Source: Psammoneis japonica
Lineage: Eukaryota
Length of the DNA: 64,000 nt
Reading direction: 5' to 3'
Assembly (NCBI GenBank): GCA_008632985.1
Contig: QPGO01000095.1
Coordinates: forward strand, 245,681 to 309,680
In this document: in pieces, positions 12,344-49,269 of the stretch
Position numbering within the stretch: the stretch's first letter is position 1
How the letters are laid out: every line of letters begins with the position of its first letter
Position numbers and translations under genes: made by a program
The notes under the pieces: generated by a model
Database searches by the model: none
Told to the model about the DNA's origin: nothing
The model's input: only the letters and a program-made list of their open reading frames with translations

Positions 12344-13616
12344 ATGACCATGATGCCTTCTCAAACAGCAATGTCACGGCTCCCAACAATATACTCGCTA
12401 CTTTCTTTCCATACAGTTCCTTCTTAGTACACACGGGATAATAGCGTTTCAAGGAATACAAAATTGGAAACAAAGAACACGGTATTCAACCTCGGGTCGC
12501 GATTCGGCACTTTTTTCAGTTCCAGCTGCAAAACAACGAAAGAAGAAACTGAAGTCCTTCCAGAGGTATCTTGAAGTTGAATGCTGGAAACGTCAAGAGC
12601 TCCGATCGTTGGAACCAGTTTTGACGTCCGTCAGTGAAGCTTTCAAACAAATCAACAGAATCGTTCAGCGGGCACAGACCGATGACCTGTACGGGGTGGC
12701 CCTCGGGCCGGATGGGATGCCCCTGGATGGCACCAACATTCAGGGAGAAGTCCAACAGCAGCTAGATGTGCTTTGTAATACAATTATGCTTCGCTCATTT
12801 TGTGGGAGCAGTTCCGCGATTGCCTGCGTCGCGTCTGAAGAAGAGGATGAGACCCGATCTTGCGCCGACGTCATGCATGATTCCTCCTTTGCGGTTGGTG
12901 ATTATGTTGCCGTGTTTGACCCAATCGATGGTTCCAAGAATATTGATGCATCACTTCCGGTAGGCAGTATTTTCGGGATCTATAAAACCCAGCCTGGTGC
13001 CTCAACGAAACCCGACAGCTCCTTTTTGCAGACTGGAGCTGGCCTTGTCGCGGCTGGATATTGTCTCTACTCTGCTACAACTGTCCTTGTCATCACGTTG
13101 GGATCCGGAGTTGACGGCTTCACTCTAGATCCTGATAAAAGCATGTTTCTTCACACACATCCAGACATTAGAATTCCATCAGCAGGTCCCATCTACAGTT
13201 TCAATGAAGCTAACTTTCATGACTTTAACGCACCCATTAAGCGCTATCTGGACGCCCTGAAAGCCGGGTCCAGCTCCGTCGGGGTCCGATCCAATGCGAG
13301 ATATATTGGTGCGCTTGTGGCGGATGTGCACAACGTGTTGATCAATGGTGGAATATACGGCTACCCCGGAACTCAGCCGAACCCCAATGGGAAGCTCCGT
13401 TTGCTATACGAATCATGTCCAATGGCACTCATCATGGAGCAGGCGGGTGGAGCTGGTTCGACTGGCACTGGTCGAATCCTCGATGTGATGCCGCATGAAA
13501 TTCATCAACGTGTCCCGACGTTTCTGGGTAGCATTGAAAACGTGTATGAACTAGACCAGTTTCATACCTACTACGGAGGCGAAGACGAAGACGAGCTAGT
13601 GGAGGAGGAGGAATAG
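12344..13616 (+). CDS. FBP: Fructose-1,6-bisphosphatase class I, probably plastid-targeted; apparent 1-nt insertion at ~12403
   Basis: Motifs QQLDV, SEEED, FDPIDGSKNIDASLPVGSIFGIY, YSFNEAN, RYIGALVADVH, GKLRLLYE. The frame stays open upstream of 12609 to SIQFLLSTHGIIAF (signal peptide plus AF motif). ATGs at 12344/12371 are one base out of frame. Confidence 0.93.
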
Positions 13617-18579: not shown

Positions 18580-18894
18580 TGCCGATGTATATTCAACATA
18601 TCTGTGTTCGACGATGCAAAAGAAGTTGTGTCGCATTGCGTCGCTCGTTGTTGGCGCAATTCCATGCACCGAAATTCGCGCGCGTTCAGTTTCCGCGCTG
18701 CACTTCTCTCCATACAGTAACCATGATCTCTGGCAATGAGTTTGCGCCGTAATTCTCGACGATTCCGACAGCCTCTTGAACAAAGCGTTCTTTTTCATCA
18801 CTGCGGGGCTCTCGTTTGTAAGAAACGTTGAGACACCACAAGCTGCAAATCCTGCATAATTTCTTGGGGATTCCATCAAACAGGCTCTGATCTC

Positions 18895-19388
18895 ATGGGT
18901 TCGCATTTTTTTTTTCAAAAGATGCCACCCTTTTATCGCTGTTGGGCAGCCATCTTGATCGCCCTCGGATTGCTCGCATGGATTGGCCAATCGATTGTGT
19001 TTCTCTTTCCAAAATTTGCAACTGACATTGGGCTCAGTGAGGACGAGTCGCAGGTAAATCCCGGTCTCTGGGCAGATGTAATTGGTGAATCCTTTTGCGA
19101 CATGTGGCTGGATTGGACACTCGTCGCAGCTGGAATTCTCTTGTGGTGTCAACACTTTCCTGGCCTTATTTTGGACTGACTGGAGGTGGGATTTATCTGT
19201 ACTTTGGTGTTCGAGGTATCTGTCAACGAGTCTCAGTCATGAAACGAGGAATAGCATATGGAGGCACAGATTACATTGTTTTTGCAATAGTCTTGTGCGC
19301 CATATGGGCAGTGGCTGCGTTGATTACAATTGTTCTGGCTGTTCGAAGACTCGAGCATATTCGAGGACAGTACGAACCAATCCAATAG
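18895..19388 (+). CDS. Small ~4-TM membrane protein (copy A of the triplicated unit); 1-nt deletion at ~19157
   Basis: Two overlapping hydrophobic ORFs join into one protein. The decayed copy at ~44190 (CAA TGC CAT TCC TGG) has the base that is missing here. Confidence 0.7.
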
Positions 19389-19887
19389 CAGTACATACAG
19401 TAGTTTCCTTTAGCACTTCTTCATGACGGCTTCGTCCTCCGGCAAAAAGGTTGGATCGAAGCCCTTATTTGTTTTCATTCCTAAGCAAACACGCGTTCAA
19501 CCTAGAGTAAATACTGTACTGATAAGAAAAGCGTTCTGACGAGGAAACTATTCTGTAGCCAGTAGAGACTGCTTTTATCAAAAAAAGGATTCCTATTCTT
19601 CGAATTTCGCACATCAATTCAAGCAGGTTTCCCGCGCTTTTTGCACGCGAGAGTGCGTTGATGCGCACGGGTTCACAAGGGGTGAAAACGACGACGGGGC
19701 TAACGTATTATTCAACGTGGAACTTTCAATTGCATCGATAGCAAGAAGTGCTTGTTCATAGTACTAAGTAACATTTCGATAACTCGAATAGAAGAGTCTC
19801 TGGCGGTTTCAAAAAGAGCTTAAAGAGATTGAAAGAAATTGACGCGTAGCAAGCAGTGTCGATTCTGTTTTTGTTTCTCCAGAAAAA

Positions 19888-21295
19888 ATGTCACGAACAA
19901 GCAGCAGTTCTCTCAATAGACGTCTCGAGTCTGAATTATACGAGAGCATTCAAAACCAAGATTGGGATTACACCGAAGAATTATTAGTGGAAGCTTCTGA
20001 GCTCCCCGTCGTACGACGAACCGCGGACAATACGCTTCTGCACTGTGCCACCGAACAAGAAGGAGTCCCACCCGACGTGATTCGAAAATTGTCGTCCGTC
20101 TTGCTAAGCTGGCAACGACACGCCACCAACAAGTGGGGTCTAACGCCTCTTCACAATGCCATTTTATTCAACAAAATCTCGACGTGATTTCTGTTTTGCT
20201 GGAAATTCACTTGGTGGCAATCGACATGGCGGACCGGAGCGGGCGGACACCCATGGACAATTTCTTCACGCGCTTGTTGGAACGTGAAGAAGAAGAAGAA
20301 GAGGACGAACATCCAGACGTGCTCAGTGAAGATCTAATTGGCATACTGCGACTTTTGACAAGAGCTTGGATGGAATACTACAAAACAAGTGGCTCGGGCA
20401 GACTATCGACTCCGCTTCATCGAGCACTGCAAGTTGCGTTTTTCACAAGGATTTACCCATGTCGGTGTTGAAGATCTGCTGGAAACAAGCCCGTCCATGG
20501 CACAAGTACAAGATGGCAATGGGTGCACACCACTCCACTTGGCTTCCAGACACGATGATCATAATGCAAATGAGCGGCTGCAGCTCTTGTTAAACGCGAC
20601 TCCAACAGTCGTCTTGGAATGGAGAGATGAAAACGGCCGAACACCCCTTTCCAGTGCTGTTTTTTTGGTTTGCCTCTCTGGAAATTTTTGAGACGCTTGT
20701 AGCTGCAAATCCGGCCAGCGTCTTCATTCCAGACAATGACAACAAGACACCACTCGACCTCGTGAGTGACTTGATTGCGAGAGAAATGGCTGTATCCGAG
20801 TATACCCTGAATGTTGCCGAGACGCTCGTCATGGGCCGCCGCAATTCCGACTCTGTATTGCGCAAGTCCATTCTCCTTGAGAATTGTCCTGTCGAGCTGG
20901 TGCGTGTGTTTCTCCGGGCTTTTCCACAACAAGCTCTGTGGAAGGACGAAAAGGGTAACCTTCCTCTCCACCTTGCAGCCACCTTGAAACCCAAACCACC
21001 TGAACTCGTTGCTTTTACGTCTCTGCTGAAAGAACTCGTTCAAGCCTTTCCAGCAGGACCAAAGACAACCAATGACGCTGGTCTCTTGCCACTGGCGTCC
21101 TTTATTTGTGCCGAGCGCAAGTGGAACGAAGGACTCGGGACAATCTTTCAAGCTCATCCAGCAGCCGTCATGGATCAGGGCTTGCCTCCATGTGCCGTGA
21201 CGCAGCTACTGTCCAAATTGGGCAAATGCTCAGACAACCCAACCGTTCTCTATCAATTGCTACAAGACGCTCCGTCTCTGGTCAGTCGAGTGTAG
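19888..21295 (+). CDS. Ankyrin-repeat protein, copy A, broken by several small indels (pseudogene or consensus errors)
   Basis: Collinear with the intact 35647-37071 copy (TLLH, TPLH, GNLPLHLAA), but split over four ORFs. Confidence 0.8.
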
Positions 21296-21376
21296 AATAA
21301 ACAGCATTATTTAGAGAGTAGAATCAAAAGCTGGCTACAACAGTTTTCAACACACATGTAGATTCCACATTCTTTT

Positions 21377-21630
21377 TATTTCTTGACTTCATTCTTCATG
21401 GCAAAGCTTTGCTTAAATTCTCTTGCACGCTTGAGTGCTTGGCTTCATTGTTTTTCCAAACCTCTGCCATGGCACAATCCATTGGATCATCAGGATTGGG
21501 CGCACTCAGCAGGGCTTGAATCGACAGAGCAACACGGTTCAAATCTGCAAGGCCAGTCTGCACTTGTCCATGAGAACATCCAAACAAAATCATCCAACTT
21601 GGATCACGTGGACACTCACAAACCACACCT
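21377..21630 (-). pseudogene. Decayed 3' fragment of UBC13, copy A
   Basis: [15 protein letters not shown]...AEVWKNNEA matches the gene at 54431-55035, with TA->CA and CG->CA/TG changes. Confidence 0.85.
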
Positions 21631-21894
21631 GCAACCAGCGTGTGGCCGCACATCCCATGTTCAGCCACACACCCCATGTCAAATCCTGCATCAGCAGTGC
21701 TTGTGGTGCCACTGCACACTCAGCAGCAACTGCAACAAACCCTGAAAGGCCACTCCAGTGACTTGTGCACCCTCATTGACAGCAGGGAAAGACTGGGCTG
21801 GAGCAAAGGGCAACAGCACAAAATGTTGGCATTTGGCATGAAGACACCACAAGTGCTCAAAGCTCAAAGGTTCTGCATGCCAGTGCAAGAGCAT

Positions 21895-22830
21895 CAGAAC
21901 ACAATTGCTGGCAATGAGTTTGCACTGCAGTTCTTGATGACTCAACAGACTCTTGAACAAAAGTTCTCTCTGTTGTTGTGAGGTTCTCATTTGCAAAAAG
22001 AGCTGCGGTGCCATCATGATCTCTGCAAACCCCTCAAAACTTCTTCTTGGGGGAACTCCATGAGAAATTGGCTCCAATGTTGCAGGGCTCACACACATTT
22101 TTCAAACAAATGTGCCATCCTTTTGTTGCTGTCATGCAGCCATTTTGATTGCCCTTGGAGTGCTGGCATGGGTCAGGCAGTCAATTTTTTTTTTCTTTCC
22201 AAAGTTGCAGCTGATGCTGGGTGAGCCAAGCAGCAAAGATGAGTCACAGGCAAAATCAGCCTCTGGGCAGACACAAGTGCTGGGGAGCCCTTTTCCAACA
22301 TGTGACTGGATTGGACATCACCAGCAGCTGGAATTCTCTTGCAGCATCAGCGCTGTCTGCCTGTTGGACTGTGGCACCACTTGGTGCTTTGAGCATCTCC
22401 AACAACCCAGTAAAACAAGAGCCGGCCTTGTTTTGGACTGTCTGCACTTTTGCACTTCGAGACATCTGTCAAGAGCCTCGCTGATGCAACGAGAGGCAGG
22501 AAAACAGCACATGGAGGCACAAGAATTGTGCTGCTGCTTTTGCAACAGTCTCACATGCAATTTGGGCAGTGGTTGTTGGCTGCAATTTCCCTGGCTTTTC
22601 GAAGACTCCAGCACATTCAAGACAGCACGAGCCAGCCCAGCTGACTGTGACAGCCAGCTTTGACATTTTTGCTTCCATGCTGACGGCTGGTGCAATCTCC
22701 TGCAAAAGGTTGGATCGAAACCCTTGTTTGTTTTGTTCCTGGCAAGCACGCGTTCAACCTCCAGCGAATGGCAAGAAGCGTTCTGACAAGGAAACTGTTC
22801 TGCATGCTCTGGCAGCCAGCAGGGCAAAAA
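21895..22830 (+). pseudogene. Hypermutated copy B of the small membrane-protein gene and its flanks
   Basis: Aligns to ~18720-19580 (AAILIALGVLAWVRQSIFFFFPK); TpA and CpG almost eliminated. Confidence 0.85.
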
Positions 22831-22857
22831 TTCCATGCTGCTGGAGTGTGCACTTGA

Positions 22858-25800
22858 TCAGCGCGAAGTGTGGAAGAAGAGGAAAACAGCGAGGGAAAAG
22901 AGAGAGAAGGGAACGAAAGAGAAAAGAAGAAGACAAGGAAAGAAATGAGGACATGACCTGAAACAGAGTTTGTGTGCTGTTTCATCTTGGCCTTTGTTGC
23001 ACACACCATGAGCATGTGGAGCCGTGCACCGGGGGTCGTGGCATTTCAGACACACCATTTTTGATCGTTTCTTGGTGGGAAAAAAGTCAGGCGGGAGAAA
23101 TCTCGGCAGTTGTTGGTGGTGAGGACACATGACAGGAAATGGGCATTGTTGACATTGGAATGGAATGAGTTGTGCCATGGGCAATGGTGCTGTCAAAAGT
23201 GTGGCGGAAGTTCTGGAAGCACACGCTCGTGCTGCAGCTTCTGCCTCGGGAGCCTCTGCCGCAGTTGCCGCCGCAGGAGCCTCTGCTGGCATGTCAACTG
23301 TAACTTGAGCTTCACCATCATTTGGATCTAGAGAGAATGATTCATCCTCTGGTTCTGGTGTTTTTTGCCTGTGCAGAGGTTCCGCTTGAAATGGCTTGGG
23401 AGCTCGAATGCCCTCGTTGCACTTCAACGCCTGCAGAGCTTCATCCTTTGCTGCTTCTCTAATTGCTGCAGATTTCTTAACATTGACTCGCCACTTTTTA
23501 TGGCAAGCAATCAAGTGACCAACATGCTTTGGAAATGTGGTGACTTCTTGACCCTTTTCCAACTGAGACGGGACCTTCACGAAGTCTCGACTCCAAATCT
23601 CACACATGATTTGAAATGTTTCTCGTGCATTGAGGGAGTGTCCATCTCAAATCAATCTTTCAAGCAGTGTCTTGAACAGCAGCCGCTCATTCTTGCAGGC
23701 AACTGGCGTGTGCGGCAGGTCTGAGTCCATCAAGCATGCCACAAATCGCCACGACGGCTTGAGCTCTTTGCACGGCTTGCCGTGCCGGTTGCCAGTTTCG
23801 ACGTGCGGCACCACGCCAAAAGGTGACCGTGTTGTTGCCACTCCTTCATCATGCGCTGCCCAACCAGTGCATTTGGGGCTTCCATGGATTCGTCGATGCA
23901 GCTCATTTTTTGTGTCTGCCAAAGAAGTGTCACAATGATGCATCTTCGGGAACCCGGGTCGGTGGTTCTCGGACGCACGCCAACTTTGCTGATGATGGTG
24001 ATTCAAAAGAACCGACACCGAGCATGTGGGTCCCGCACGGACTTGACCAAATGACCTCGTGCACTGCGAATGCCCCGACTCCGCTGCCCCAGCACCTCGG
24101 AAACAACGCCACAGCTGCAATCCATCTTTGTCGGTCTTTGGCTCACCACTCGCATCTAGAATGGGAGCATAGAAAGACACACCTTGAGGATCAGATGGCT
24201 CACCACGTGACAAAGCTTCAAGCACTCGATCAGCTTCAGCTCTAGCCTGCAAGTTGAACAGCGGCTTCTGAGTCTTTGAGTCCACCTTGTCTTGAAAATG
24301 CTCAAACACAACTTTAACTCGACTGCATGGGACATTTGAACGTGGCATGATTCTTCGGACTCGTTCAGCAACGTGGCCAAAGCTGTGGTTGACGGCTTGC
24401 TCCCATGTTTTCCCTTTCCTCGACAGCACTGCAGTCACTTCCTTTTTATCGTCGCAGTCATAGATGAACATTGCGTCTCGAAGAGCAGAAAAAAAGGCAG
24501 CTTTCCAATCATGATGAACAGGTGCCCTCACTCGTCTCATGAAATGGAAAGCATCACCCAGCACTCTTGATAAAATGTCTGCTTCATCGACTGCATCAGC
24601 AAGATTTACGGTGTCACTAACGTTTGATTGAGCTGCAAGCTCGTCGGCGGCATCAAGCAAAGATCGAACGACCCCGCCAATCGCGATTCGGTTTGTGTCC
24701 TGGATTGGTGTTAGGCTCTCTTCATCATCGACAGGAAACCGTTCCAGAATGGGAGGCATCTCCTCAGGGCTACAATCAATTTCCTCCTCATCAAGAATTA
24801 GATCCAAGCGTTCCAAAGATTTCTCATCAATGTCGATGGTAGACTCCCGGTCATTGTTGTCAGGCTTGTCGTCTGGCATCTCATTATTTTCAGGGCGAAA
24901 GGATTCTTCACCTTCGCCACACTCACAGTCAAACTGTTCGTTCAACGTTCTTTCTTCTCCTTGATTCGATTTTTCTCCATCATTTCCTCCTTGTCCACCA
25001 TCCGGCTCATTCCCGCCTCCTTCTTGTACACCAACACAATGCCGAAGACGTTTGTATTCTTCAACTATGACAACTGTCCCATCCGCAACCTTGGCAGCAT
25101 CTCGGAACGTTCGAAGATCACACGACCTTTGGTGCCGAATCTTGTGCTGAAGACCATTGCATTTACAACGCCTGTTCCCGACCTGTGTGAAGAGCAAGCA
25201 CGAGTCCGGCTTAAACACTTCTGTAACCTCCAGCAGAACTCTTGCGTCAGTGAGCTCTATTCCTGCTACCGTTCGGCCTGAAACCTGAATGATCCTACCC
25301 CGTGCAATCGGTTCCACACATGTCTTCCGGCATGGAAGAATCTCCACATCCAATCCCACTGCAAGCTCAGCTTTCATTAGACTAATAGAAAGATCTGGTA
25401 AATTTTTCAGAATCTCATATACTTGCGCACCTGCTTCGCAATCTCTAGAGCAATAGTGCAGAGCATCATCCGCTAGCTCCCCTGGTTTGTCCCAAATATC
25501 AGAAGTATGAAGAGCGGGCTTCGGCAGGAACCGCTTCAATAGAAGTGCCGAAAGTGCATCAAGCCCATACTGTCCCTTTGCATGTTGAACGAGTCCTCGG
25601 TACACCGCCATCAATCCGAGATTTCTCGAGTTCTTCATCACAAAACCAGCATGAGGGAAGTCCTTCTTCAGGGTAGTGAGATCATTCCTGATGTTGCTCC
25701 CAACAAAAATGATATCGTCACGTGACAAGAGACTTTGCAAGCGTGAAATAATCTCTTGCTTGTTTCGAATCTTCGCCAAATGAATCACGAGAACGTTGGG

Positions 25801-27557
25801 ATGTGCAATAGACCCAAGCGTGATAACCGAAGTGGTGTTCCTCGTGCCGTCCTGAAAGACACTATACTCAATGTCAAGAGAAATAGCACTGGTGGCATTG
25901 CTTTTCTGCACTTCATTTTCAAGGATATTTATTGCAGCAATGGCATTCTCACTCGAATCAAGGTACTCCGGCTTGCCTCGAAGTTCTATAATTGGAAGCT
26001 TGCCATTTTCAGCAGCAATCAAAGACTGCGTTGTACCAGATGCCCCCCGGCGTAGTGATTCTGAAGCTTCCTCGAGCATCCTTCGGTCTCGTGCTGGTGC
26101 ATCAGCAAAGGTGAAATCTGGATTGAAGCCTTGCGACACAAGCTGTGAAAATGCCGACTGAACCTCAACGTGATTGTCGGTAAGAGCAAAAAAGGCCATC
26201 ATGGATTCAAAGCACTCATTCTTTCCAGCAATCAAAGTCTCATACATCCGCTGCCCCTTCCAATTTGCTAGCCACTTTGGTACCTTATATGATGCATCGA
26301 GCGCCATAATCTTACTTGTACGCAACCGTCGAGCGTGCATGGAATCGATCCGGTCGCGGTTGTCCGTCGTGATCTTACAGTACATTTCGATCAATAACTT
26401 TTCACTTGGAACACGGCCACAAATATCATTTGAGTCATATTCCGGGAAAGGCTTGAGGTCCTGTACCAATGCCTTCCAGTTTGCATGGCCATCGGTGGGA
26501 AGAGGCTGATTGAGACGGTTCACCAAGAATTCGTCAAACAGCACCTCGCGACAATTGTGACAGTGCCATTGAATTATTTCTATGACCCCTGGAACAGCCG
26601 AAGGGCCCATTCCCTTATCAGCGCATTCAAGTGTCCATTCCATTAACATTTTGTCGACTCCGCTTCTCCAACCAAGGTAGCAAGGGAACAAATAGAACTC
26701 CCCAGGGAAATTCGCTTCCAATTGCGAGAGCACTGCCGGATGATGGGAGCTGAACGTGTACTGCCGCCTCTGGTCTTTTGGAGCGCCATTAGCTGCCTCG
26801 TTCCCATTTATCTTTTTACATTCGTGGCAGATCCATTGGATTGGCGAATTCAAAATGTAGTTCTTGGGCACACCATACACAAACCTGGGGTCGCGATCGT
26901 GGACGTTGATGCCAATGCAGCCCATGCCATTGCACCCCGATATGCATTTTGGTTTCCACCCAGGAATCATAATATCCGGTCGCCAATTAAAGACATCATA
27001 CTCGTAAAATAGCTTCCACGCGTCTCCAACAGTGTCAGGCGTTACGTCTCGTTGAGGAATGAAATCTTTTCCTTTTGACCATAGGAAGCCTCTCCTGACA
27101 TTTTTTGCAGCTTGATTCTGGTCAATATTTTCCATACATTCTCGAAGGATGCCAGAAAACTTGAAGTTATTCTCGTCGTTTTGCTCTGATGGATCCGTCG
27201 TCATGTTGTGCAGCATCCACCATGGCTGTGATTCTTGAGGAGCCTCAAATTCTGACGATTGACTTGCTTCGTCGTCGTTGTTGCTGTCATTCTGGATATC
27301 CCTACCCGCATCATCGACATTATTTTGAGCCGCTGAAGTAGTTGCCCCAACGTTCGCGTGCTCCTCTGGTGCTGCAGCATCGCATCGTCCATGCTGTCGT
27401 CGTCGTCGTCCGCGTTGTCGTTGTTGTTGTCGTTGTTGACGGGAACGAAATAGTTCGTTAAAACGTTGGAGCTAGACACTGGCGCCTTGCGGCGAGCAGC
27501 CATTACAGGAGCTCCAGCTCCAGCTCCAGCTCGTTTTCCGCCCCAACCGCCTGCCAT
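22858..27557 (-). pseudogene. Dada-type transposase with an embedded DEDDy 3'-5' exonuclease and terminal Zn fingers; frameshift ~27380, in-frame TGA at 23647-23649
   Basis: ALDASYK (D1), FADAP (D2), exonuclease (SLDIEY..GSNIRNDL..YGLDAL..HYCSRD), VLGDAFHFMRR (DxxH), RG...ESGH (E). N-terminal CxxC/CxxC and C-terminal CLKC...C. Start MAGGWGGKRAGAG at 27557. Confidence 0.75.
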
Positions 27558-27671
27558 TTTGATGACAACGAGTGGCCAAGAGAGAGGAATCTTTATCTCC
27601 CTCATTGGCAGAAAAGGGTTGCTCGCCTGATGGAGAGTAACGGTGGGAGAGACGACTCTATGGTAAAAAGA

Positions 27672-27896
27672 TGTCAACACAGTACGAACTCATGCGCGAT
27701 ACGCGCGCGCTACACTTGCGCATGCGATTTCCCGCCATCGGTCTTTTTCAACTTTTCTCACAATTACAACATCTAGTGTAACAAGACATTAGCAGCTTTA
27801 CCGATTATACTGTTATCGTTGGCCCTCTTCGCTAGCGATACATCTACTATTCGACTTCAGTCGACTTCTCCTAACTCTCAGACGAGAGTTGTCGCA
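27672..27896 (+). repeat. 5' LTR of the Copia element
   Basis: tgtcaacac...gagttgtcgca; ungapped match to 35027-35251 with 18 differences. Confidence 0.97.
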
Positions 27897-28009
27897 GGTT
27901 GGGAGCCCAAGTGTCGCGCTTGATCACTCCTGCGCTCATCTCTTTCTCTCCGGTGGACGAGAATTGAGCTCCGTACATTTCTACGTACAATTCTACGTGA
28001 GTGTTGCAC

Positions 28010-28385
28010 ATGTCCGAAAGGAACTCTGCGACACTTGACGACCTTGTTGAACAACTACAAGCCCTGCAACTGCAAGAAGTGGAGCTTGTTCGTCGCATTG
28101 CCGCAGAAAGAGAAAACGGCAGAATCGCCTCACTGCGCCAACGCGAGCCGGAACCGCTCGCACTTCTGCTTCAACCACACGAGAACCAACCATCGCGGAT
28201 TTTCGTGTGGGCGACCGAGCAGTTGTCATGAACGAAATTCGTAATTTTCGATGCTCCGTTGCCATCCAAGACCGTCAAGCAACTGTCACTCGCATTGCAG
28301 AACAACGAGTGCACATCCGCACGGATGACGGTAATTCAACGAACCGTCATCCAAAGAACCTGCGTTTTCTCGCGCAATTCGCATG
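28010..28385 (+). pseudogene. Small accessory ORF upstream of gag (coiled coil plus KOW/SH3-like barrel), frameshifted ~28200
   Basis: MSERNSATLDDLVEQLQALQLQEVELVRRIAAERE, then in a second frame FRVGDRAVVMNE...ATVTRIAEQRVHIRTDDGNSTNRHPKNL. Confidence 0.5.
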
Positions 28386-29867
28386 CCAAGCAAAGCAGCA
28401 AGCATTCCACTCCCTCCTTCTCCGCCAGCCAGCATGTCCGAGGTTGCCATCAACGGACGGAAGGTGAAAGTCCGCGCAACGCCGAAAGCGTCGCAAGACA
28501 CTCTTGCTGCTCTCTGCACTGGGGCGCAGAGGAACAGGTTGGATCCTGACAAGCTCAACGACCTCTTTCTGAAGGCGACTTCGAAACAGCAGACAAAATT
28601 TGACCTCCTCAATGTCAACATCAACGATCCTGACAAGCTCGAGGATGCTTGTGACCTCGCGATGTCAATCTCAACCATGCGTTCGAACCATGTTAAGTGC
28701 GACATGGATGACGTCTTCACCATCATCGACCCGGACAAATTCACGACGCGTGATCTTTACAAGGAACACTCCACGATCACTGCAGCAGAGGTTGCCGCAA
28801 GCAACAAATGGCATTCCACCATGCTCGAGGACCCCGATGGGACTTGGGCGAGCCAAAACCTTCGTCTTGCTCACGACTGCTTCGAGCGGAACGCGTCCGT
28901 CGCACTGCAGAAGAAAGTCAACGAGACGCACCTCAAATGTGACCAGGAGGAGCAGGGCAGACCTCTTTTCTTTGTTCTCATGATGAAACTCCTTCAGAGC
29001 AACTCCGAAGAGGCTGCTCGTTGTTTGGTTTCCAACACAACCAACCTCAAGATCACCGACTTCGATGGAGAAGACGTCAGTAAAGTCGTGTCTCTCATTC
29101 GCGGTGGCTGTTCTCGACTCGCCAATCTCCAGGATCAGAAAGGACAGTCTGTCATTCCCACTGATTTTCTGGAGAATCTTGCCAAAGTCTTTCAAATGTC
29201 GAGTGTCCCCGAGTTTAATTCTCTCTTTGAGCACCTCACCAAGGACTCCAAGACTTCCAAACTCAAGCAATCGGGCTCGATGACCGCTGCAATGACCACT
29301 GCGGTGGACGACATCCTGTCCTTCACCGAAGGCGAGCATCTCGCTCTTGTCTCCTCCAACAAGTGGTCCGGCGTGACTGCTGAGACACAGGCAACTTCGT
29401 TTGTTGCGGGTGTCGTCACTTGTTTTAACTGTGGCGGCCCTCATCCTTTGTGCGACTGCAAGAAACCGGTCGACAATGCTCGTGTTCGTGCCAACAAGAA
29501 GCCATTCTTCGATGCGAAACGGGCTCAGTGCAAGAACAACTCTTCAGGATCCTCCTCTTCCGGTCCCTCCACTAAGACCATTCCCAAGAAATGGCAGCCA
29601 CCGACTGAAGCAGAAAAGAACAATGACAATCGCCGCAACATCGATGGTGAGGATCATTGCTGCCATTGCAAAACCAAGCGCTGGTGCCCGGTGACTGAGA
29701 CGGGGAACGTTGCCTCCACTCCTGCCACTGCACCTTCTCCCGCTCCGGCCGCCACGCCTGCCCCGGCACCGGCCTCCGCTCCTGTCACGGATCGAGACCT
29801 CGCCATTGCCAACGCCAAGAAGGAGATGGTCGAAACCATGTCCGGCCTCTTCACCTCCTTCACCTGA
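28383..29867 (+). CDS. gag: Copia Gag (hypermutated)
   Basis: Zinc knuckle CFNCGGPHPLCDC; LKITDFDGEDVSKVVSLIRG; only one Tyr in 494 aa. Confidence 0.85.
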   Translation: MPSKAASIPLPPSPPASMSEVAINGRKVKVRATPKASQDTLAALCTGAQRNRLDPDKLNDLFLKATSKQQTKFDLLNVNINDPDKLEDACDLAMSISTMRSNHVKCDMDDVFTIIDPDKFTTRDLYKEHSTITAAEVAASNKWHSTMLEDPDGTWASQNLRLAHDCFERNASVALQKKVNETHLKCDQEEQGRPLFFVLMMKLLQSNSEEAARCLVSNTTNLKITDFDGEDVSKVVSLIRGGCSRLANLQDQKGQSVIPTDFLENLAKVFQMSSVPEFNSLFEHLTKDSKTSKLKQSGSMTAAMTTAVDDILSFTEGEHLALVSSNKWSGVTAETQATSFVAGVVTCFNCGGPHPLCDCKKPVDNARVRANKKPFFDAKRAQCKNNSSGSSSSGPSTKTIPKKWQPPTEAEKNNDNRRNIDGEDHCCHCKTKRWCPVTETGNVASTPATAPSPAPAATPAPAPASAPVTDRDLAIANAKKEMVETMSGLFTSFT

Positions 29868-29897
29868 AGCTTCGGGCGCGCCTCCTCTCCTGAGCGT

Positions 29898-32800
29898 GTG
29901 GCCCTCTCTTCTTGCTTTTTCAACCAACCGTCCAATCCTGGAAGGGACATCCAGGCTCATTTGTCGGTCGGCCACTTTTTGCTCCTATGGTTCACTCTCC
30001 AGATTCTTGGAGAGGGAGGGACCGAAGCAGTTTCGTCACTTTTTCAGTTGCTGTTTGTTTTGGCAGGTGGATGTTTGTTCTGCTTGCTTCTCTTTTCCAA
30101 GAATCCTTTGCTTTCATGCGACGATCCACCCGACTTTGTTGTTGTTCCTTCTACCGAACCGACCTCATTTCGTCGTCCTCCTGATCGAACTCGGATGACA
30201 CATCATTCTCAGGTACGCCGCTTGGATCGGCGCCCAGTTCGAATCCCACATAGAGACCCCTTGTGGTCCTTCCTTCATCCAACGACTTGGCGTAAACAGC
30301 GCCGAACACCTGTCCCGGACAGTGCAGCGATTGCTGATCCGGATCGCTCCTGTCGAAAATCCAAGTCGTGGAAACTTTCAAGATCGAGACGTCGATCCAA
30401 ACCCAGGAAACCGAAGCCACCTAGATTTGCCCACGTTGATCCTCAACAAGAGGCCGCAGAAGCCTGCGCTCAAATCAAGCACCGCCCATTGCATCTACCT
30501 TCCGAGATGTACGAATTTCCTCATGGTGCGACTCCAACTGATTTCATTGCTTTGCTTGATCCTCTCGGTGACTGCCTGAGGACCAAACCTCGCAGCTCCG
30601 CAACACGAACGGAGCCCTCACCTTTTGCACCTCCAGACGACCCTGAAGCTTCCGAACTAGAAGAGTTCTTCCGCATCAAACACCAACTGCTACACCAAAC
30701 ATGGATCATGTGCGACATGCAGTGCGGTTGTTCGTTAGACGAATTCGTTCAAGGCATCGATCCTTCAGAACAATTCCATTTGATCAAGACACTTGCCTCT
30801 TCCAAAATGTTGCGAGCTTGTGGTCAAGCACCGACACTCTCTTGCGTCACAACCAACTTGTCATGCACGACAACAGCAACCTTTACGAGTGGCTTTGGTG
30901 GAGCAGCTGTGTTCTCTCACCAGACCATGACAGGTCCATCTCACGTTGTTGCATCCGAGCCGGATCCACCATGGCTAACTGAAGATCCAACGCAGTGTGT
31001 CAAGTCCTTCAATGATGCAAGAGATCTCGAAGGCCACCAATGTCAAGCATTGACATCGTGCTCACCCATCGACGCACCTGTTGTTCTCGACACAGGAGCA
31101 TCTTCGTCACTCACACCTCACTCAAGTGACTTTGCAGGACCGCTGGAACCCGTTGATGCCACTGCCATCAACGGATTGTCTTCAAGCACCCGAGCAGTTG
31201 GTCAAGGTTTCATGGAATGGGACGCAATTGATTGTTGGAATGTCATCCGGACCATTCGAACGTGAGCCTGCTGTGTTCCTGATGCTTCCATTCGACTCTT
31301 CAGCCCTCAAGCACATTTTCAAGAGAATGGAAACCAAGGTGAATGTCTCGTACGAGGAAACAAAGCAACCCTCACTCTTCCGAAAGGGGATGCGCTCGAG
31401 TTCCCATGTGACAAGGAAAACAACTTGCCTTTCATGATGATGTCCGAACCAATCTCAGCCGGAGTCACCCAATGCAATTTGGCTCCCATCAGTGCCGAAG
31501 CACGCCTCACTTCGTTTCTTTCTGTCACTTCTCAGACCAATCAGAATCTAACACCCGGCCAGAAGGAGCTTCTTTTGCTCCATCAGAAACTTGGCCATGC
31601 CGGCTTCCAGCACATTCAATGCTTGTGTGCAATGCCACGGGATCCCACTAAATCCCACATTGTCAAGCCTTCAACCCAAGCCGTCTCCAGTTGCACCGCA
31701 CCTTCATGTGCTGCCTGTCAACTCGCAAAGCAGAAACAATGAACACCTGACCGTTGCGGCACCTCCAATCATCCGCCGTTGACTTTGCGACAGGGAGATT
31801 TGGCTCCTGGTCAACGCGTCTCCGTTGATCAGTGCATCAGCCGTGTCCCTGGCCGTCTTCCGACGTCCAAGGGACGCGAACCCAAGAAAGACAAGTGTTG
31901 TGGAGGCACGATTTTTGTTGATCATGCTTCTGCCTGCGTCCATCTGACCCATCAAGTTGGTCTCACCGCAGGTGAAACTGTTCGTGCCAAGCAATCCTTC
32001 GAGCAGCTTAGTGACCAATTTGGGGTCCGCATCAAGTCCCACCTTGCTGACAACGTCCCGTTTGGCACCAAGGCTTTCATGGATGACCTGGAAGAAAACA
32101 ACCAGACTGTTGATTTCTCTGGTGTTGGCACTCATCATCAGAACGGCACAGCCGAGCGCTCCATCCAAACAATCACCTCATGGGCACAAGCCATGCTCCT
32201 GCACGCCATTCTCATGTGGCCTGATGCCGCCAACCTGGAGTTGTGGCCTTTTGCCATGACCCATGCGACCCACTTGTGGAACCACATCCCAAAGTCTGAC
32301 ACTCGCACCGTGCCAGTCGAGATCTTCTCCAAGCAACGCTTTGACACCTGTGCACATCTACAGTGCTTACAAGTGTGGGGTTGCCCCACACATGTTCTTG
32401 ATCCTAAGTTACAAGATGGCAAGAAACTGCCTGAGTGGGACCCCAGGAGTCACCGTGGCCAACATCTCGGCATCTCACCGGATCATTCAACTAACATCGG
32501 CCTCATTCTGAATCTCTCGACAGGCCATGTTAGCCCTCAGCATCACGTGGTCTACGACAACCACTTTGCAACGGCACCCAACAGCGACTCTGGCAGTTTC
32601 TTCCAGGATGTTCCCTTCACTGCCGACCTTTGGGAATCCCTCCTCACCGCCGACTCGCTGGTGCACCATGCTCCGCCTGAGCCTTCCGCCACCGCCAATG
32701 ACCCTCACTGTCGCTTGCCGGCTTTGCACGATGATTGGTTAACACCCGCAGAGCGCCACCATTGCGCTAATCATCGACATGACCGCCGTCAACGTCATCT

Positions 32801-35006
32801 CCAAAACTCCAAAACGGCCCCTCCCACCGTCCTTCCTTCAACCTCTTCCGTCACAGCTCCAGAGGGAGAGCTTCCTACATTGCCCGAATCATCCACTGAC
32901 AATCTAGAATCTGCAACTTCAGAGGCTCCAGAGGGAGTCGAGATCGATGAGTTCAGCGACAACAGCGACAACGAATTGTCGCTTGTTGATCATCACGACT
33001 TGCCTGAAGACCTCGACCTGGGTCCTGCTGAAGCTGAGCCACCTCAACCGGCTCCGAATGCCACCACAACACCTGCTCGGACTCAAAGCGGTTGTTCCGT
33101 CAAGAAGCCGGAACGCTTGATTGAAGCTGTGCATGCCGACATCCGCATTCCGCCCAACGAGTTGCCGAATGCCTGCAAAAATCCCAAACGTGCCATCAAG
33201 TCGGAAACACTGAACAAACAGTTCTTGATGGCCCTGCGTTGGGATGGCGTCATGAATGCACTCCGGTCCAAAGATTTGCATGCAATGCTTGACCTTTTCA
33301 ACAAAAACACCAATCAAGTTCACGGAACACTCGAAGAAATGCACCCTCTTGCCCTCGCAGCGAATGCAAATTCTGCTGATAATCCAACTTGGGAAGAAGC
33401 AATGAATGGCCCTGATCGAGCAGCTTGTCTGAAAGCTTGCGACGTCAAAATCGATTCTCCAGTCAAAGGCAAGGACGCCTGGGAAGAAGTAGACCGCCAA
33501 GATTGGATGAACGTCTTACCATCCACTTGGGCCTTCAAGTGCAAACGACACCCCGATGGGTCGATCCACAAACACAAAGCCCGCTTTTGCGTCCGTGGAG
33601 ACAAGCAATTGGAAGGCATCGACCACTTTGACACCTTTGCTCCAGTTGTCAATTGGACGACCGTGTGGCTTGTGCTCACACTTTCTCAAATTTTGGAACT
33701 TTCGACAAAACAAGTTGATCATGTCACCGCTTTCGTCCATGCTCCAATTGACAAGGATCCCAAATGGGATGCCATGACACCCGAAGAGCGAGAACGCTCT
33801 GGCATCTTCGCACAAATGCCTCGCAGATGCACCAAGCCCGGCAAAGCACTGAAACTCAAACGGACCGTGTGTGGTCTCAAGCAAGGACCTCGCAACTTTT
33901 TCCTGCACCTCAAGTCAAAACTCAAAGACGCTGGATTTCAATCGCAAGACGATGTCGATCCGTGTCTGTTTGCATCCGACAAAGTCATCTGCCTCGTGTG
34001 TGTTGATGATGCACTGTTCTTCTCTCCGAAACAAGATTGTGTCGACGAAGTGATCGAGAAACTCAAAATTGATGGCGGTCTGGCCATCGAAGTTGAAGAT
34101 TCCGTCGCAGGTTTTTTGGGGGTCCACATCGAACGCGACACCGACAATGGTGCTGTCAAGCTCACTCAGAGCGGTCCATCCAAACGTGTCGTCGAAGCCC
34201 TCAACATGGGCCATCCACCAAAGGCCCGAACGCCCACACTGGCCACTCCGTTGGCCAAGGACACCAATGGAGACCCACCAAATGGAGCCTGTAATTGTGC
34301 CAGTGTGGTTGGCATGCTCCAACATCTCCAAGGCCATTCTGGGCCAGACATTGCCTGCGCCGTTAGCTCAGCAGCCAGATTTGTTCATGGCCCTTGTCGC
34401 TCACATGAACTGGCCCTTGAATGGATGGGTCGACACCTGAAGGGCACTCTGGATGAAGGCCCAATCCTCAAGCCATCTGGGGACTTCAACATTGACGTGT
34501 TTGTTGACTCAGATTTTGCTGGACTGTGGCCGCACGAAGACAAGCATGACCCGGCTTGTGTCAAAAGCCGAACAGGATTTGTCGTTTGCATTTCCAACTG
34601 TCCTGTCATTTGGTCCAGTGAGCTTGCACCTGAGATTGCTCTCTCAACAATGGAAGCAGAGCACAGTGCTCTTTCCACTTGCATGAAAACTGTCCTTCCC
34701 TTTCCACGCACTGCACAAGCCATCTCTCAAGGCGCTGGAGTTGGTCCAGGAACTGCCAAGACCACACACACTGCTGTGTGGGAGGACAATGTTGGGGCTT
34801 TGACTCTGGCTGACATGGAACCTGGCCGAGTTACGCCCAGGTCCAAGCACTGCGCAATCAAGTGTCATTGGCTCCGTTCACAGCTCAAACCAAATCGAGT
34901 TGCTGTGTCCAAGATCGCAGCAGACTTGCAACGCGCTGATGTTCTGACCAAAGGTCTTATCACGGTTAAATTCAAGGCCACTCGAAAGTTGCTTTGCGGT
35001 TGGCAG
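29898..35006 (+). pseudogene. pol: Copia Pol (protease, integrase, RT, RNase H), inactivated
   Basis: VVLDTGAS protease; HQKLGH...CAAC; QNGTAER integrase; CLVCVDD RT; DSDFAG/QRADVLTK RNase H. In-frame TGA at 31263 and 31740. The expected terminal stop after LCGW reads CAG (35004-35006). Confidence 0.93.
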
Positions 35007-35026
35007 CTTCTTCGTTCGAGAGGGAG

Positions 35027-35251
35027 TGTCAACACAGCACGAACTCATGCGCCATGCGTGTGCGCTGCACTTGCACACGCGATTTCCCGCCATCGGTCTT
35101 TTTCAACTTTTCTCACAATTGCAACATCCAGTGTAACAAGACATCAGCAGCTTTGCCGATCATGCTGTCATCGTTGGCCCTCTTCGCTAGCGATGCATCT
35201 ACTGTTCGACTTCAGTCGACTTCTCCTAACTCTCAGACGAGAGTTATCGCA
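35027..35251 (+). repeat. 3' LTR of the Copia element
   Basis: Follows the PPT; ends tatcgCA, followed by TSD AAAGA. Confidence 0.97.
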
Positions 35252-35646
35252 AAAGACAGCCAAATAGAAAGCACTGCGACGTCAGCTATAACATAGAGTG
35301 TGCTAATTAAAACGCACTGCGCGCAATCCCTCTCCATCAGCATAGCATGTTGACCGCCAGCCTGGCGCACAAATGCGAGACTACCTACCGGCGGATGCGC
35401 GCCCGCGCGTGCGTTGATGCGGTCGTGCCAACGAAAAACATCCACAAAACGACAACGGGCAAGGTGGGTGTATTATTCAACGTGTCACTTTCAATTGCAT
35501 ATCGATAGCAAGAAGTGCTTGTTCATAGTACTAAACAACACTTCGATAGCTCGAATAGAAGTTGAGTCTCTGGTGGTTTCCACAAAAGCTGAAAGATTGA
35601 AAGAAATTGTAGCAAGCAGTTTTGATTCTTCTTTAGGTTTTCAAAA

Positions 35647-37071
35647 ATGTCACGAACAAGCAGTTCTCTGAATAGACGTCTCGAGTCTGAATTGTACGAG
35701 AGCATCCAAAACCATGATTGGGATTACGCCGAAGAATTATTAGTGGAAGCTTCGGAGCTCCCCGTCGTTCGACGAACCGGCGACAATACTCTTTTGCACT
35801 TTGCCACCGAACAAGAAGGAGTCCCACCCGACGTGATTCGAAATTTGTCGTCCGTCTTGAGCTGGCAACAGCAATATGCGACTAACAAGTGGGGTAAGAC
35901 GCCCCTTCACAATGCTATTTTATTCAAACAGAATTTCGAGGTGATTTCTGTTTTGCTGGAAATTCACTTGGTTGCAATCGACATGGCGGACTGTAGGGGG
36001 CTTAAAAGGGGGTGGACACCCGTGGATTACTTTTTTACGCGGTTGTTGGAACGTGAAGAAGAGGATGACGAACAGCCAGACGTGCTCACGGAAGATCTAG
36101 CTGCCATGCTGCGACTTTTGACAAGAGCTTGGATGGAATACTACAAAACAAGTGGCTTGGAAAGACTTTCGACTCCGCTTCATCGAGCAGTCCAATTTGC
36201 GTCTTCATACGAGGATTTGCCATTGTCGGTTTTGAAGATTCTGCTGGAAACATGCCCGTCCATGGTACAAGTACAAGACAGCAATGGTTGTACACCACTC
36301 CACTTGGCTTCCAGACGCGATGGTGCAAATGCAAATGAGCGACTGAAGCTCTTGCTGAACGTGACTCCCGCAGCCGTTTTGGAATCCCGGGATAAAAACG
36401 GCCGAACACCCCTTTCCAGCGCTCTCTTTTGGGTTGCCTCTCTGGAAATCTTCGAGACACTGGTTGCTGCAAATTCGGCCAGCATTTTCATTCCAGACAA
36501 GAGCAACAAGACACCGCTCGACCGTGTGAGTGGCCGGATTGCAAACGACGAGAGTGCTGTAGTATCCGACTATTACCTGAATGTTGCCAAGACGCTCGTC
36601 ATGGGCCGCCGCTGCAATTCCGACTCTGTTTTATTGCGCAAGTCCATTCTCCTTGAGAAATGTCCTGTCGAGTTGGTACGTGTGTTTCTCCGGGTTTTTC
36701 CACAACAAGCTCTGTGGAAGGACGAAAAGGGTAACCTTCCTCTCCACCTTGCAGCCACCGTGAAACCCAAACCACCTGAACTCGTTGCTTTTACGTCTCT
36801 GCTGAAAGAACTCATTCAAGCCTTTCCAGCAGGACCAAAGACAACCAATGACGCTGGTCTCTTGCCACTGGCATCCTTTATTTGTGCCGAGCGCAAGTGG
36901 AATGAAGGACTTGAGACAATCTTGCAAGCTCATCCAGCAGCCGTCATGGATCAACACTTGCCTCCATGTGCCGTGACGCAGCTACTGTCCAAATTGGGCA
37001 AACGCTCAGAAAATCCAACCGTTCTTTATCAATTGCTACAAGAGGCTCCGTCTCTTGTCAGTCGAGTGTAG
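35647..37071 (+). CDS. Ankyrin-repeat protein, copy B (intact, 474 aa)
   Basis: Uninterrupted ORF with GDNTLLHFA, GKTPLHNAI, GCTPLHLAS, GRTPLSSAL, GNLPLHLAA; normal Tyr/TpA content. Confidence 0.9.
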   Translation: MSRTSSSLNRRLESELYESIQNHDWDYAEELLVEASELPVVRRTGDNTLLHFATEQEGVPPDVIRNLSSVLSWQQQYATNKWGKTPLHNAILFKQNFEVISVLLEIHLVAIDMADCRGLKRGWTPVDYFFTRLLEREEEDDEQPDVLTEDLAAMLRLLTRAWMEYYKTSGLERLSTPLHRAVQFASSYEDLPLSVLKILLETCPSMVQVQDSNGCTPLHLASRRDGANANERLKLLLNVTPAAVLESRDKNGRTPLSSALFWVASLEIFETLVAANSASIFIPDKSNKTPLDRVSGRIANDESAVVSDYYLNVAKTLVMGRRCNSDSVLLRKSILLEKCPVELVRVFLRVFPQQALWKDEKGNLPLHLAATVKPKPPELVAFTSLLKELIQAFPAGPKTTNDAGLLPLASFICAERKWNEGLETILQAHPAAVMDQHLPPCAVTQLLSKLGKRSENPTVLYQLLQEAPSLVSRV

Positions 37072-37146
37072 AATAAGCATAATTTAGATTAGAATGAAGC
37101 TGGCTACAACAGTTTTCAACATGTTGTAGATTCCACATTTTTCTTT

Positions 37147-37338
37147 TTATTTCTAGACTTCATTCTTCATGGCAAAGCTTTGTATAAATTCTCTTGCACA
37201 CTTGAGAGCTTCAGTTTCATTGTTTCTCAACCTCCACCGTGGCATTGTCCAGTGGATGATTGGGATTGGGTGCACTCAGCAGGGCTTGAACAAACAGCAG
37301 CATGGTTCGCTGCAAAGCTGGACTCCACTTGTCCTTGA
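37147..37338 (-). pseudogene. Decayed 3' fragment of UBC13, copy B, truncated by a LINE
   Basis: Aligns to 54431-54625; homology ends at ccacttgtccttga (~37338). Confidence 0.8.
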
Positions 37339-37339
37339 T

Positions 37340-43700: not shown

Positions 43701-43709
43701 GTGATGTGC

Positions 43710-46207: not shown

Positions 46208-46525
46208 TTCATCCTTGCATTCTAGCAGCTTGTAAAGATCATCACTTCGACACTGGCCAGCCAGCTGCAGCTTGACATGAATCATTTGAGGAAGCAGCTA
46301 TCGTCCAGGTAGCGCAGCACGGCAGATGTACACGTCGACCCCGAAACGTGTGTGGTGTTTGCCTCCGGCAGTCGACTCACATGCAACCCAGTGGATAGGG
46401 TCCCCTTGGCGCAACGCTACTTTCTCTGTTAGGTCGAGACATGCCTCTAAAACTTAGATGAACTAATGCGAACGTTATCGTAAGCTCTGATAGGTATAAT
46501 TGATACTCAATGACAATCCCACCCA

Positions 46526-49150: not shown

Positions 49151-49269
49151 GACTTTTTTTAGGATGAAGCCACAGACCCCATGACCCAAGCATGTGTCGG
49201 TGGAAAGGTGGCACAGAGCTCTTCAAGACACATTTAGAGTCTCATGTTGAATGGAGACAACTGGGGAAG

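Follow-up and report, generated by a model that had tools for sequence, protein, structure and literature searches.

The stretch of DNA analysed here (the window: 64,000 nucleotides of contig QPGO01000095.1 from Psammoneis japonica) carries a Ty1/Copia retrotransposon whose two long terminal repeats (LTRs) differ mainly at the dinucleotide TA, as well as several domains, most of them old transposable element (TE) DNA, from which TA has nearly vanished. Their positions and those of the other features are collected in Table 1. We regard the two LTRs as belonging to one insertion because of their TG/CA ends, the matching AAAGA duplication and the polypurine tract GAGAGGGAG. The assignment to Ty1/Copia follows from the direct TG...CA LTRs with a 5-bp duplication and from an RVT_2 domain with the integrase placed before the reverse transcriptase (RT). 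In the open reading frame (ORF) 31743-35267, Pfam locates RVT_2 at residues 579-833 (E = 8.6e-23), preceded by two matches under the Pfam cut-offs, gag_pre-integrs (22.1 bits) and SH3_retrovirus (22.9 bits). A gag zinc knuckle and a protease motif can be recognised in the translated element. The RT-RNaseH region is matched by 657 proteins at E<=1e-20 with a best identity of 64%, and the named matches are diatom Copia polyproteins, for example of Nitzschia inconspicua. Domain order, RVT_2, short LTRs and the 5-bp duplication are shared with the diatom Ty1/Copia elements of the CoDi lineages, as far as these are described in the accessible part of PMC2806351. Unlike those elements, the window copy is dead: its single long frame (28335-35267) is interrupted by three TGA stops (29865, 31263 and 31740), the catalytic YVDD of the RT reads CVDD, and the whole frame holds 3 Tyr in 2238 codons compared to a median of 2.73% Tyr in 120 homologues. 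All three stops are TGA and none is TAA or TAG, which is expected under an erasure of TA.

Table 1. Positions of the features in the window, from left to right
Feature	Position	Strand	Remarks
Tandem intronless trypsin-family protease genes	4916-6373, 9535-10902		76% DNA identity; TA-normal
DUF7467 ORF	10934-11458		After second trypsin gene
Repeat family copy U	18719-19560	+	In TA-normal DNA; 32 TAs, 38 CpGs in 842 bp
Ankyrin-repeat gene, three copies	19705-21601, 35470-37338, 53173-54654		81-86% identity
TA-depleted domain	21500-25000		CpG depleted only to ~23000-23750
Repeat family copy D1	21897-22825	+	Inside depleted domain; 1 TA, 14 CpGs
ORF with 3'-5' exonuclease domain	23650-27471	-	1274 codons; divergent from Copia; 5' part TA-normal
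5' target-site duplication AAAGA	27667-27671	+	Same 5-mer at 35252-35256
5' LTR	27672-27896	+	225 bp, TG...CA; TA-normal: 16 TAs (observed/expected 1.0), 19 CpGs
Leader after 5' LTR	27897-28010	+	TAs at 27974, 27982, 27986, 27994; end of spared zone
Copia interior	28011-35026	+	gag zinc knuckle, protease, integrase, RT-RNaseH; TA-depleted
Polypurine tract GAGAGGGAG	35018-35026	+	Immediately 5' of 3' LTR; read from the letters
3' LTR	35027-35251	+	225 bp, TG...CA; 5 TAs (observed/expected 0.36), 16 CpGs
3' target-site duplication AAAGA	35252-35256	+	Same 5-mer at 27667-27671
Old TE domain	37250-46250		TA observed/expected 0.02-0.06, CpG 0.09-0.21
298-bp repeat pair	38301 / 41317		Inside 37250-46250
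Gypsy integrase/RNaseH remnant	39316-40582	-	Inside 37250-46250
Repeat family copy D2	43738-44620	+	Inside depleted domain; 2 TAs, 9 CpGs
Tandem array, 3.5 copies of 190-bp unit	45554-46207		84% matches; right edge of 37250-46250; TA-free
Old TE domain	48250-54250		53250-54250 fringe reaches into ankyrin gene copy C
Old TE domain	59000-64000		Continues beyond window end
Gypsy RT/RNaseH remnant	60439-61277	+	Inside 59000-64000

Composition was profiled per kb and in 250-bp bins. Over the whole Copia element, the observed/expected (o/e) ratio is 0.16 for TA, 0.87 for CpG and 1.21 for AA, and the interior ranges from 0.05 to 0.23 for TA and from 0.61 to 1.12 for CpG, in agreement with the initial annotation of this DNA, which had described the element as CpG-abundant yet nearly free of TpA. 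Between 28010 and 35205 we counted 48 TAs compared to ~277 expected from 11 TA-normal relatives, in which the CpG o/e is ~0.9-1.1 compared to 0.87 in the window copy. The GC content of the interior amounts to 0.51-0.55 versus ~0.47-0.49 nearby, and TAs turn sparse from 28056 onward.

The two LTRs were compared by MAFFT alignment and by direct ungapped comparison. They align without a gap over 225 bases, similarity ends at both LTR ends, and 18 positions differ (92% identity). Both procedures reproduced exactly the spectrum reported initially, namely 13 differences of TA versus TG or CA, four of CG versus TG or CA and one transversion. TA stands in the 5' LTR at 12 of the 13 sites (LTR positions 12, 30, 41, 95, 103, 119, 129, 135, 138, 143, 169 and 178) and in the 3' LTR at one (position 220); the claim that the two ends were hit unequally is thus borne out (12:1, p = 0.003). 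CG is found in the 5' LTR at positions 33, 35 and 49 and in the 3' LTR at position 52, and the single transversion (G/C at position 27) lies within a CpG; none of the changes at the 13 TA sites is a transversion. Counted over the union of both LTRs, 17 TA sites exist, of which the 5' LTR retains 16 and the 3' LTR 5 (losses of 1/17 and 12/17), along with 20 CG sites, of which 19 and 16, respectively, are retained. Loss in the 3' LTR therefore amounts to 71% for TA compared to 15% for CpG (12/17 versus 3/20, Fisher p = 0.0009), and at the 151 positions outside any TA or CG there is not a single difference. By chance, 13 or more of 17 transitions would fall on TA positions with a probability of 2.8e-8. 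The changes private to the 3' LTR at TA comprise 7 A>G and 5 T>C; they extend to LTR position 177, while the TAs at 201 and 219 are retained, and normal TA density returns immediately in the flank beyond. A raw divergence of 8% thus contrasts with one transversion and no transition outside TA and CG sites, which supports the view that LTR-based ages are inflated here.

To which side the changes went can be read from the protein. The RT-RNaseH region (33180-35050) was aligned to 30 long homologues of 120 listed, and a column was called conserved when at least 80% of the aligned homologues carried an identical residue (n = 338). The window copy keeps 279 of the 338 conserved residues but none of the 11 conserved Tyr (TAY codons), which have become 6 Cys, 4 His and 1 Phe (Fisher p = 2e-9). 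The 623-aa segment as a whole contains no Tyr compared to 14-21 in each of the 30 homologues. Among the 59 replaced residues, one TA>TG step suffices for 16 and one TA>CA step for 9; the remainder consists of 11 CpG-type changes, 4 other transitions, 12 transversions and 7 multi-step changes. The polarity of the Tyr columns together with the TA>TG and TA>CA replacements implies that TA was lost, on both strands, and that the copy was inactivated thereby. The loss of TA, which the initial annotation had assumed, is confirmed by the fate of these Tyr codons and by the 25 of 59 replacements of this type. Selection for low TA in a working element was considered and is excluded for the window copy. 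Among the 120 homologues, a 1430-residue protein (P0184) has 0.77% Tyr compared to the median given above and may represent another partly TA-depleted copy, from a different data set.

Several lines of evidence place the changes in the chromosome. The occurrence of both A>G and T>C among the changes private to the 3' LTR indicates that both strands were hit after the LTRs had been duplicated; an editor working on RNA or on a single cDNA strand should leave only one of the two types, and RNA edits would enter both LTRs. Secondly, the neighbouring exonuclease ORF shows a gradient, with TA counts per 300 nt, from its 5' to its 3' end, of 13, 11, 12, 7, 11, 14, 6, 6, 4, 4, 2 and 0. Four full-length homologues with 41-43% identity exist for it, and TA-type substitutions account for 3/157 in codons 1-800 versus 12/91 in codons 801-1274 (p = 0.0005). 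In the former part, 8 of 11 conserved Tyr are kept and none of the three lost ones became Cys or His; in the latter, 1 of 8 is kept and 5 of the 7 lost ones became Cys or His. Such a gradient inside a single ORF without LTRs argues for a regional, chromosomal effect. The exonuclease ORF has Cys/His-rich motifs at its N terminus, and the only relatives found are four metagenome proteins of 1442-1591 residues, without Pfam domains and on contigs of 5-9 kb, which run ~200-300 residues past its stop. It may itself be a gene of a mobile element.

Thirdly, we aligned the three copies of a repeat family, one of which (U) lies in TA-normal DNA and two of which (D1 and D2) lie inside depleted domains. 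At the 20 aligned columns where U has TA, neither D copy does; 39 of the 40 D cells read TG or CA, as do both D copies in 19 of the 20 columns. D1 and D2 were resolved alike in 13 of these 19 columns and differently, TG versus CA, in 6, and the reverse case, TA in a D copy against TG or CA in U, does not occur. At the 22 CpG columns of U, D1 retains 8 and D2 retains 4. More generally, TG versus CA is the commonest adjacent double mismatch between TE repeat copies in the window, with shares of 9/17, 4/5, 6/12, 8/23, 7/19 and 6/18 of the adjacent mismatch pairs in six TE pairs compared to 2/53 in the trypsin gene pair. Double differences of this kind are the expected trace of one ancestral pyrimidine-purine site that was resolved independently in each copy. 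The hits on both strands, the intact AAAGA duplication, the gradient in the gene and the copies of the repeat family all support the initial statement that the changes arose after integration and not during reverse transcription.

The composition of the whole window (TA o/e 0.34, CA/TG ~1.4) is a mixture of states. Gene-rich DNA has a TA o/e of 0.45-0.87 and a CpG o/e of ~0.8-1.2, compared to a TA o/e of 0.00-0.11 in the four depleted domains, whose cores show a CpG o/e of 0.09-0.39 and a CA/TG ratio of 1.6-2.1. Counted per kb, the TA o/e of the older TE domains is 0.02-0.11. These domains are discrete, and their edges coincide with TE ends or with promoters of neighbouring genes. At 21500, 37250, 46250 and 59000 the edge is sharp, falling within one 250-bp bin, and fringes that are TA-poor and CpG-normal separate core from normal DNA at 22750-25000, 48250-48500 and 53250-54250. 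The counts of CA versus TG along the domains have no consistent sign, as regards a strand bias relative to transcription. Between ~25250 and 28000 lies a TA-normal island of 2.7 kb that comprises the 5' end of the exonuclease gene, the 5' LTR and ~100 bp of leader, and at the other side the depletion of the Copia abuts the start of the intact ankyrin ORF 35626-37068. The spared 5' LTR belongs to the island, and the interior and most of the 3' LTR belong to the mutated domain; the LTR pair was able to record the process since an edge of this domain falls a short way into the element. The mutated Copia domain might correspond to a block of silent chromatin bounded by active promoters, possibly including the LTR promoter of the element itself.

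In each of the four comparisons that were made, TA was lost to a greater extent than CpG, i.e. in the 3' LTR, in the Copia interior, in the fringes, and in D1 and D2, which keep 0 of 20 TAs but 8 and 4 of 22 CpGs. The claim that TpA loss is faster than CpG decay therefore holds, and so does the observation that more decayed TE remnants have lost both, as the ratios of the old domains illustrate. The further claim that TpA loss is distinct from the deamination of 5-methylcytosine (5mC) stands as far as chemistry is concerned (A:T>G:C versus C:G>T:A); on the other hand, both processes occupy the same domains and may be coupled. The two resemble each other in their domains, their TG/CA products, their self-complementary target dinucleotide and their action on both strands, and differ in that 5mC decay cannot yield A:T>G:C and is slower here. 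Changes of the 5mC type, CG to TG or CA, form a minority (4/18 LTR differences and 11/59 RT-RNaseH replacements). The word 'editing' in the initial annotation presumes an enzyme, which is hypothetical here. With respect to neighbouring bases, the TAs that survive in the TE domains and the Copia interior are enriched for TTAA and CTAA/TTAG, which make up 43/78 surviving TAs in the old domains compared to 126/1176 in background DNA; in the Copia, sites containing ATA or TAT number 4 compared to ~134 expected.

In order to see the signature outside the assembly, we used a public run, X1, and metagenome loci. X1 contains 0.51 of the sampled words of 26001-36000, and its contigs were compared with 20001-40000. 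One 933-base contig with a word depth of 29 is identical, with 0 differences, to the TA-depleted segment 37434-38366. The summed contig depth over the Copia is 400-830 compared to ~60-100 in the flanks, so that the element is multi-copy, and most X1 contigs over it are diverged paralogues. Of about 1770 differing places in the Copia, 26 are listed where every X1 contig differs from the window: the contigs read CG and the window TG or CA in 10, the contigs TA and the window TG or CA in 7, the window has TA in 3 and CG in 2, and 4 are other changes. In one contig (depth 29), 27657 is linked to 35251 by six other letters. It looks like a Copia-free allele, so that heterozygosity or polymorphism of the insertion is possible; where the window flank has two TA sites, the six letters read TG and CA. 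Over 26199-26724, within the exonuclease gene, there are two X1 contigs, one identical (depth 33) and one with 49 differences in 494 bases (depth 30), the latter being either a ~10% diverged haplotype or a paralogue.

Among 80 metagenome Copia loci encoding relatives, the median TA o/e is 0.64 and most loci are normal, which suggests that the process is limited to some genomes or to some copies. Two of them share the signature. Locus L066 has a TA o/e of 0.04 and a CpG o/e of 0.20, its YVDD reads CVDD, and the 5 TAs in its 1789 bases are its 5 Tyr codons. Locus L017 has a TA o/e of 0.21 with Tyr>Cys/His changes. In L017:1-1693, 12 TAs fall in the pol frame (2-1456) compared to 10 in the last 190 bases; this sharp boundary near the end of pol resembles the domain edges in the window.

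Overall, these comparisons show a directional A:T to G:C change at TpA, made in the chromosome after insertion and on both strands, with other dinucleotides almost untouched. The specificity, with at least about 70% of TAs hit compared to none of the 151 other LTR positions, argues for an enzyme. The agent would be an enzyme with base specificity that attacks the double-stranded DNA of silent chromatin, either by deaminating the adenine in 5'-TA-3' to hypoxanthine or by modifying the thymine in 5'-TA-3' into a form that pairs with G; the two routes leave the same trace because TpA is its own complement. The process might then defend the genome by mutation, in the manner of the repeat-induced point mutation (RIP) of fungi but with opposite chemistry. 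Tyr codons and TA-containing signals would be destroyed and long, stop-poor frames left behind. We assign a probability of roughly 60% to this reading, that is, to a TE-directed chromosomal conversion of TpA to TpG or CpA by a base-specific enzyme in silent chromatin as a RIP-like defence. Its narrower version, in which a chromatin-guided modifier, most simply a 5'-TA-3' DNA adenine deaminase, acts as the mirror image of RIP in some diatoms, is tentative and has the odds somewhat against it.

What is published on DNA modification in diatoms provides context. CpG methylation of TEs occurs in diatoms, and many of them have DNMT4, a protein of unknown function related to fungal RID, according to the accessible part of PMC9998398; the latter is context and not evidence for a role. 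In the portion of 10.1101/2024.10.28.620566 that is accessible, eukaryotic N6-methyladenine (6mA) is located at ApT, shows no enrichment in TEs and causes hardly any mutations; for the diatom P. tricornutum, only 5mC is given as found. 6mA of the AMT1 type is an unlikely source, as the target here is TpA in silent TEs versus symmetric methylation at ApT near active gene starts. Cytosine deamination, be it by RIP, APOBEC or 5mC decay, was also rejected as a source, as it cannot produce A:T>G:C at TpA.

Among the alternatives, the one that survives best is collateral damage by error-prone patch repair. Deamination of 5mC would give a T:G mismatch, and long-patch synthesis by a polymerase-eta-like enzyme would miscopy T in TA; CpG would be restored, so that TA loss would outrun CpG loss and reach a little past the methylated zone. 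TA and CpG loss are indeed co-located, TA-poor fringes reach 0.25-2 kb past the CpG-depleted cores, CpG is mostly kept while TA is lost in the Copia, and three of the four 'other transitions' in RT-RNaseH lie at AA, the second WA motif (W standing for A or T). Moreover, the accessible part of PMC9723645 reports that with purified AID and Pol eta, T>C transitions accumulate at TA (WA) hotspots, and phase-2 somatic hypermutation or non-canonical mismatch repair, which involves Pol eta at WA, is similar to the window pattern in its T>C and A>G changes at TA hotspots near deaminated cytosines. However, 12/17 TAs hit versus 0/151 other LTR positions, and no transversion at 13 TA changes, is too clean a spectrum for either. 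AA is not depleted (o/e 1.21), and RT-RNaseH has 25 TA-type compared to 3 AA-type changes. Pol eta, in contrast, is broadly inaccurate, acts on WA including AA at a comparable rate and frequently produces transversions. Patch repair appears unlikely to us, and judged by the sequence patterns a base-specific DNA modifier would be favoured over it.

Gene conversion could have created the asymmetry of the LTRs, in that the 5' LTR and leader were overwritten by an unmutated copy, or the 3' LTR by a mutated one, in which case the LTR pair would not time the process. The family is multi-copy with many diverged contigs on the Copia, and conversion between LTR copies is common in other genomes. On the other hand, TA is normal without a break from the flank across the 5' LTR into 100 bp of leader, and this stretch joins the TA-normal 5' end of the neighbouring gene, which is what a chromatin boundary would be expected to produce, and the depletion of the 3' LTR (5/17 kept) matches that of the interior. 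The comparisons of RT-RNaseH, of the exonuclease gene and of U, D1 and D2 need no conversion at all. We regard this explanation as distinctly improbable.

Editing of RNA or cDNA before or during integration, with the strand of the 3' LTR remaining single-stranded for longer, would fit a spared 5' LTR and leader next to a heavily hit interior. APOBEC-edited retroviruses show editing gradients, and ADAR-type enzymes prefer a 5' U or T neighbour; both kinds of editing also resemble the present case in producing clustered transitions that inactivate copies. They act on one strand and before integration, however, and leave identical LTRs, whereas both strands were hit here, the LTRs differ and DNA other than retroelements is affected too. 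In particular, the changes found in the 3' LTR alone (7 A>G, 5 T>C), the 16 TA>TG and 9 TA>CA replacements in the interior, the gradient in a gene without LTRs, the repeat family with a TA-normal copy and the TA-poor fringes that extend into flanking non-TE DNA make such a course very improbable.

A technical artefact, in which a long-read assembly misreads modified TE bases (G for A, T for C), would match the near-total loss and the sharp edges, as a modification-dependent miscall might, and the platforms of the assembly and of X1 are not on record. Against it stand the identical X1 contig at depth 29, since contigs built from exact 31-mers would hardly arise from noisy reads, the presence of the signature in L066 and L017 from other metagenome assemblies, and the reading of the same ancestral TA as TG in one D copy and CA in the other, which a single-base miscall would not readily cause. 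We consider an artefact highly improbable. Least credible is a reverse polarity, in which the 3' LTR is ancestral and the 5' LTR gained TA through a RIP-like CpA>TpA change: the LTR differences have no outgroup of their own and the TA o/e of the 5' LTR (1.0) is above the gene-rich background of 0.5-0.7, but no conserved Tyr of 11 is kept, 20 columns of TA loss in U, D1 and D2 face none of the opposite kind, intergenic DNA reaches a similar TA density (36 TAs in 55001-55500) and the 3' LTR matches a demonstrably depleted interior.

A number of points weigh against a TE-directed, enzymatic loss of TpA. All sequence evidence from the assembly comes from one 64-kb window, and the LTR differences are polarised through the interior and other copies instead of an outgroup for the LTRs. 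Among the differences of the other repeat pairs in the window there is no excess of TA (111/1353 classified), which we attribute to saturation as an assumption, and the ankyrin copies give a weak signal, with TA losses of 10, 2 and 9 compared to gains of 4, 2 and 3. Silencing and methylation of the domains are read from CpG depletion and from data on other diatoms in the accessible part of PMC9998398. X1 may stem from the source sample, so that its match speaks more strongly against errors of assembly or polishing than against errors of base calling. The process does not extend to diatom Copia elements in general; the search patterns for the 80 metagenome loci contained Tyr and were thus biased against depleted copies. 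At 14 other metagenome loci, terminal-repeat pairs (97-100% identity) differ by 1 TA-type compared to 10 CpG-type changes, and most of these pairs are probably assembly overlaps. Finally, we do not claim an extended target motif, as the results of a per-strand neighbour model, of the product counts and of the 13 LTR events are at odds with each other.

Hypermutation directed at TEs is known as cytosine deamination, namely RIP in fungi and APOBEC editing of retroelements. The case described here is a variant of TE-directed hypermutation that is RIP-like in logic and not in chemistry. It shares with fungal RIP the mutation of TEs in place, transitions at one dinucleotide on both strands to near saturation, the inactivation of coding sequence, sharply bounded compositional domains and unreliable LTR ages. 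In contrast, RIP converts C:G to T:A, mostly CpA to TpA, and thereby raises TpA and lowers GC, whereas here TpA is erased and GC raised; fungal RIP proper was rejected as the process because its defining chemistry fails. RIP further depends on a DNMT of the RID type and takes place before meiosis. The trigger appears to differ as well, being duplication in RIP, while in this diatom host chromatin state looks like the trigger. Duplicated host genes keep normal TA, although the identities of the trypsin pair (76%) and of the ankyrin triple (81-86%) are maybe too low to inform; for the trypsin genes, this suggests that duplication alone does not attract the process.

In the full-text literature outside subscription journals and supplements, we found no description of TpA loss in diatom TEs or of A:T>G:C hypermutation directed at TEs. 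If the narrower version given above is true, eukaryotes would have a first known natural DNA hypermutator of the A:T>G:C type. Chromosomal removal of TpA by A:T>G:C would represent a different chemistry, in an ecologically dominant algal group, and would point to an unknown DNA-modifying activity of interest for base-editing enzymology. In genomes of this kind, dating by LTR divergence would be invalid and TE annotation distorted, because Tyr-free, Cys/His-rich pseudo-ORFs with few stops could be called as genes. The o/e ratios of TA and CpG together might provide a compositional marker by which silenced chromatin is mapped from a genome assembly alone, and the reading makes a testable prediction on the order of events after TE insertion, with TA loss first and CpG loss later.

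The window is otherwise gene-dense, and its recognised genes have few or no introns. An intronless ORF for fructose-1,6-bisphosphatase (12354-13616) has best matches of 56-82% identity, and the named ones are from diatoms, i.e. Odontella, Nitzschia, Chaetoceros, Cylindrotheca, Skeletonema and Thalassiosira. Gene density, scarcity of introns and these matches mark the host as a diatom. Of the three ankyrin copies, each of which borders a TA-depleted domain, only the middle one is intact, with an ORF of 481 codons (35626-37068), and the left 500 columns of the third copy contain 3 TAs compared to 11-13 in the other two. TA-depleted DNA shows many long spurious ORFs on both strands. In the old TE domain that begins at 37250, we also noted a G-over-C skew of +0.31 to +0.50 per 500 bp at 37500-38500 and 41500-43500, for which we have no explanation and which coincides roughly with the 298-bp repeat pair.

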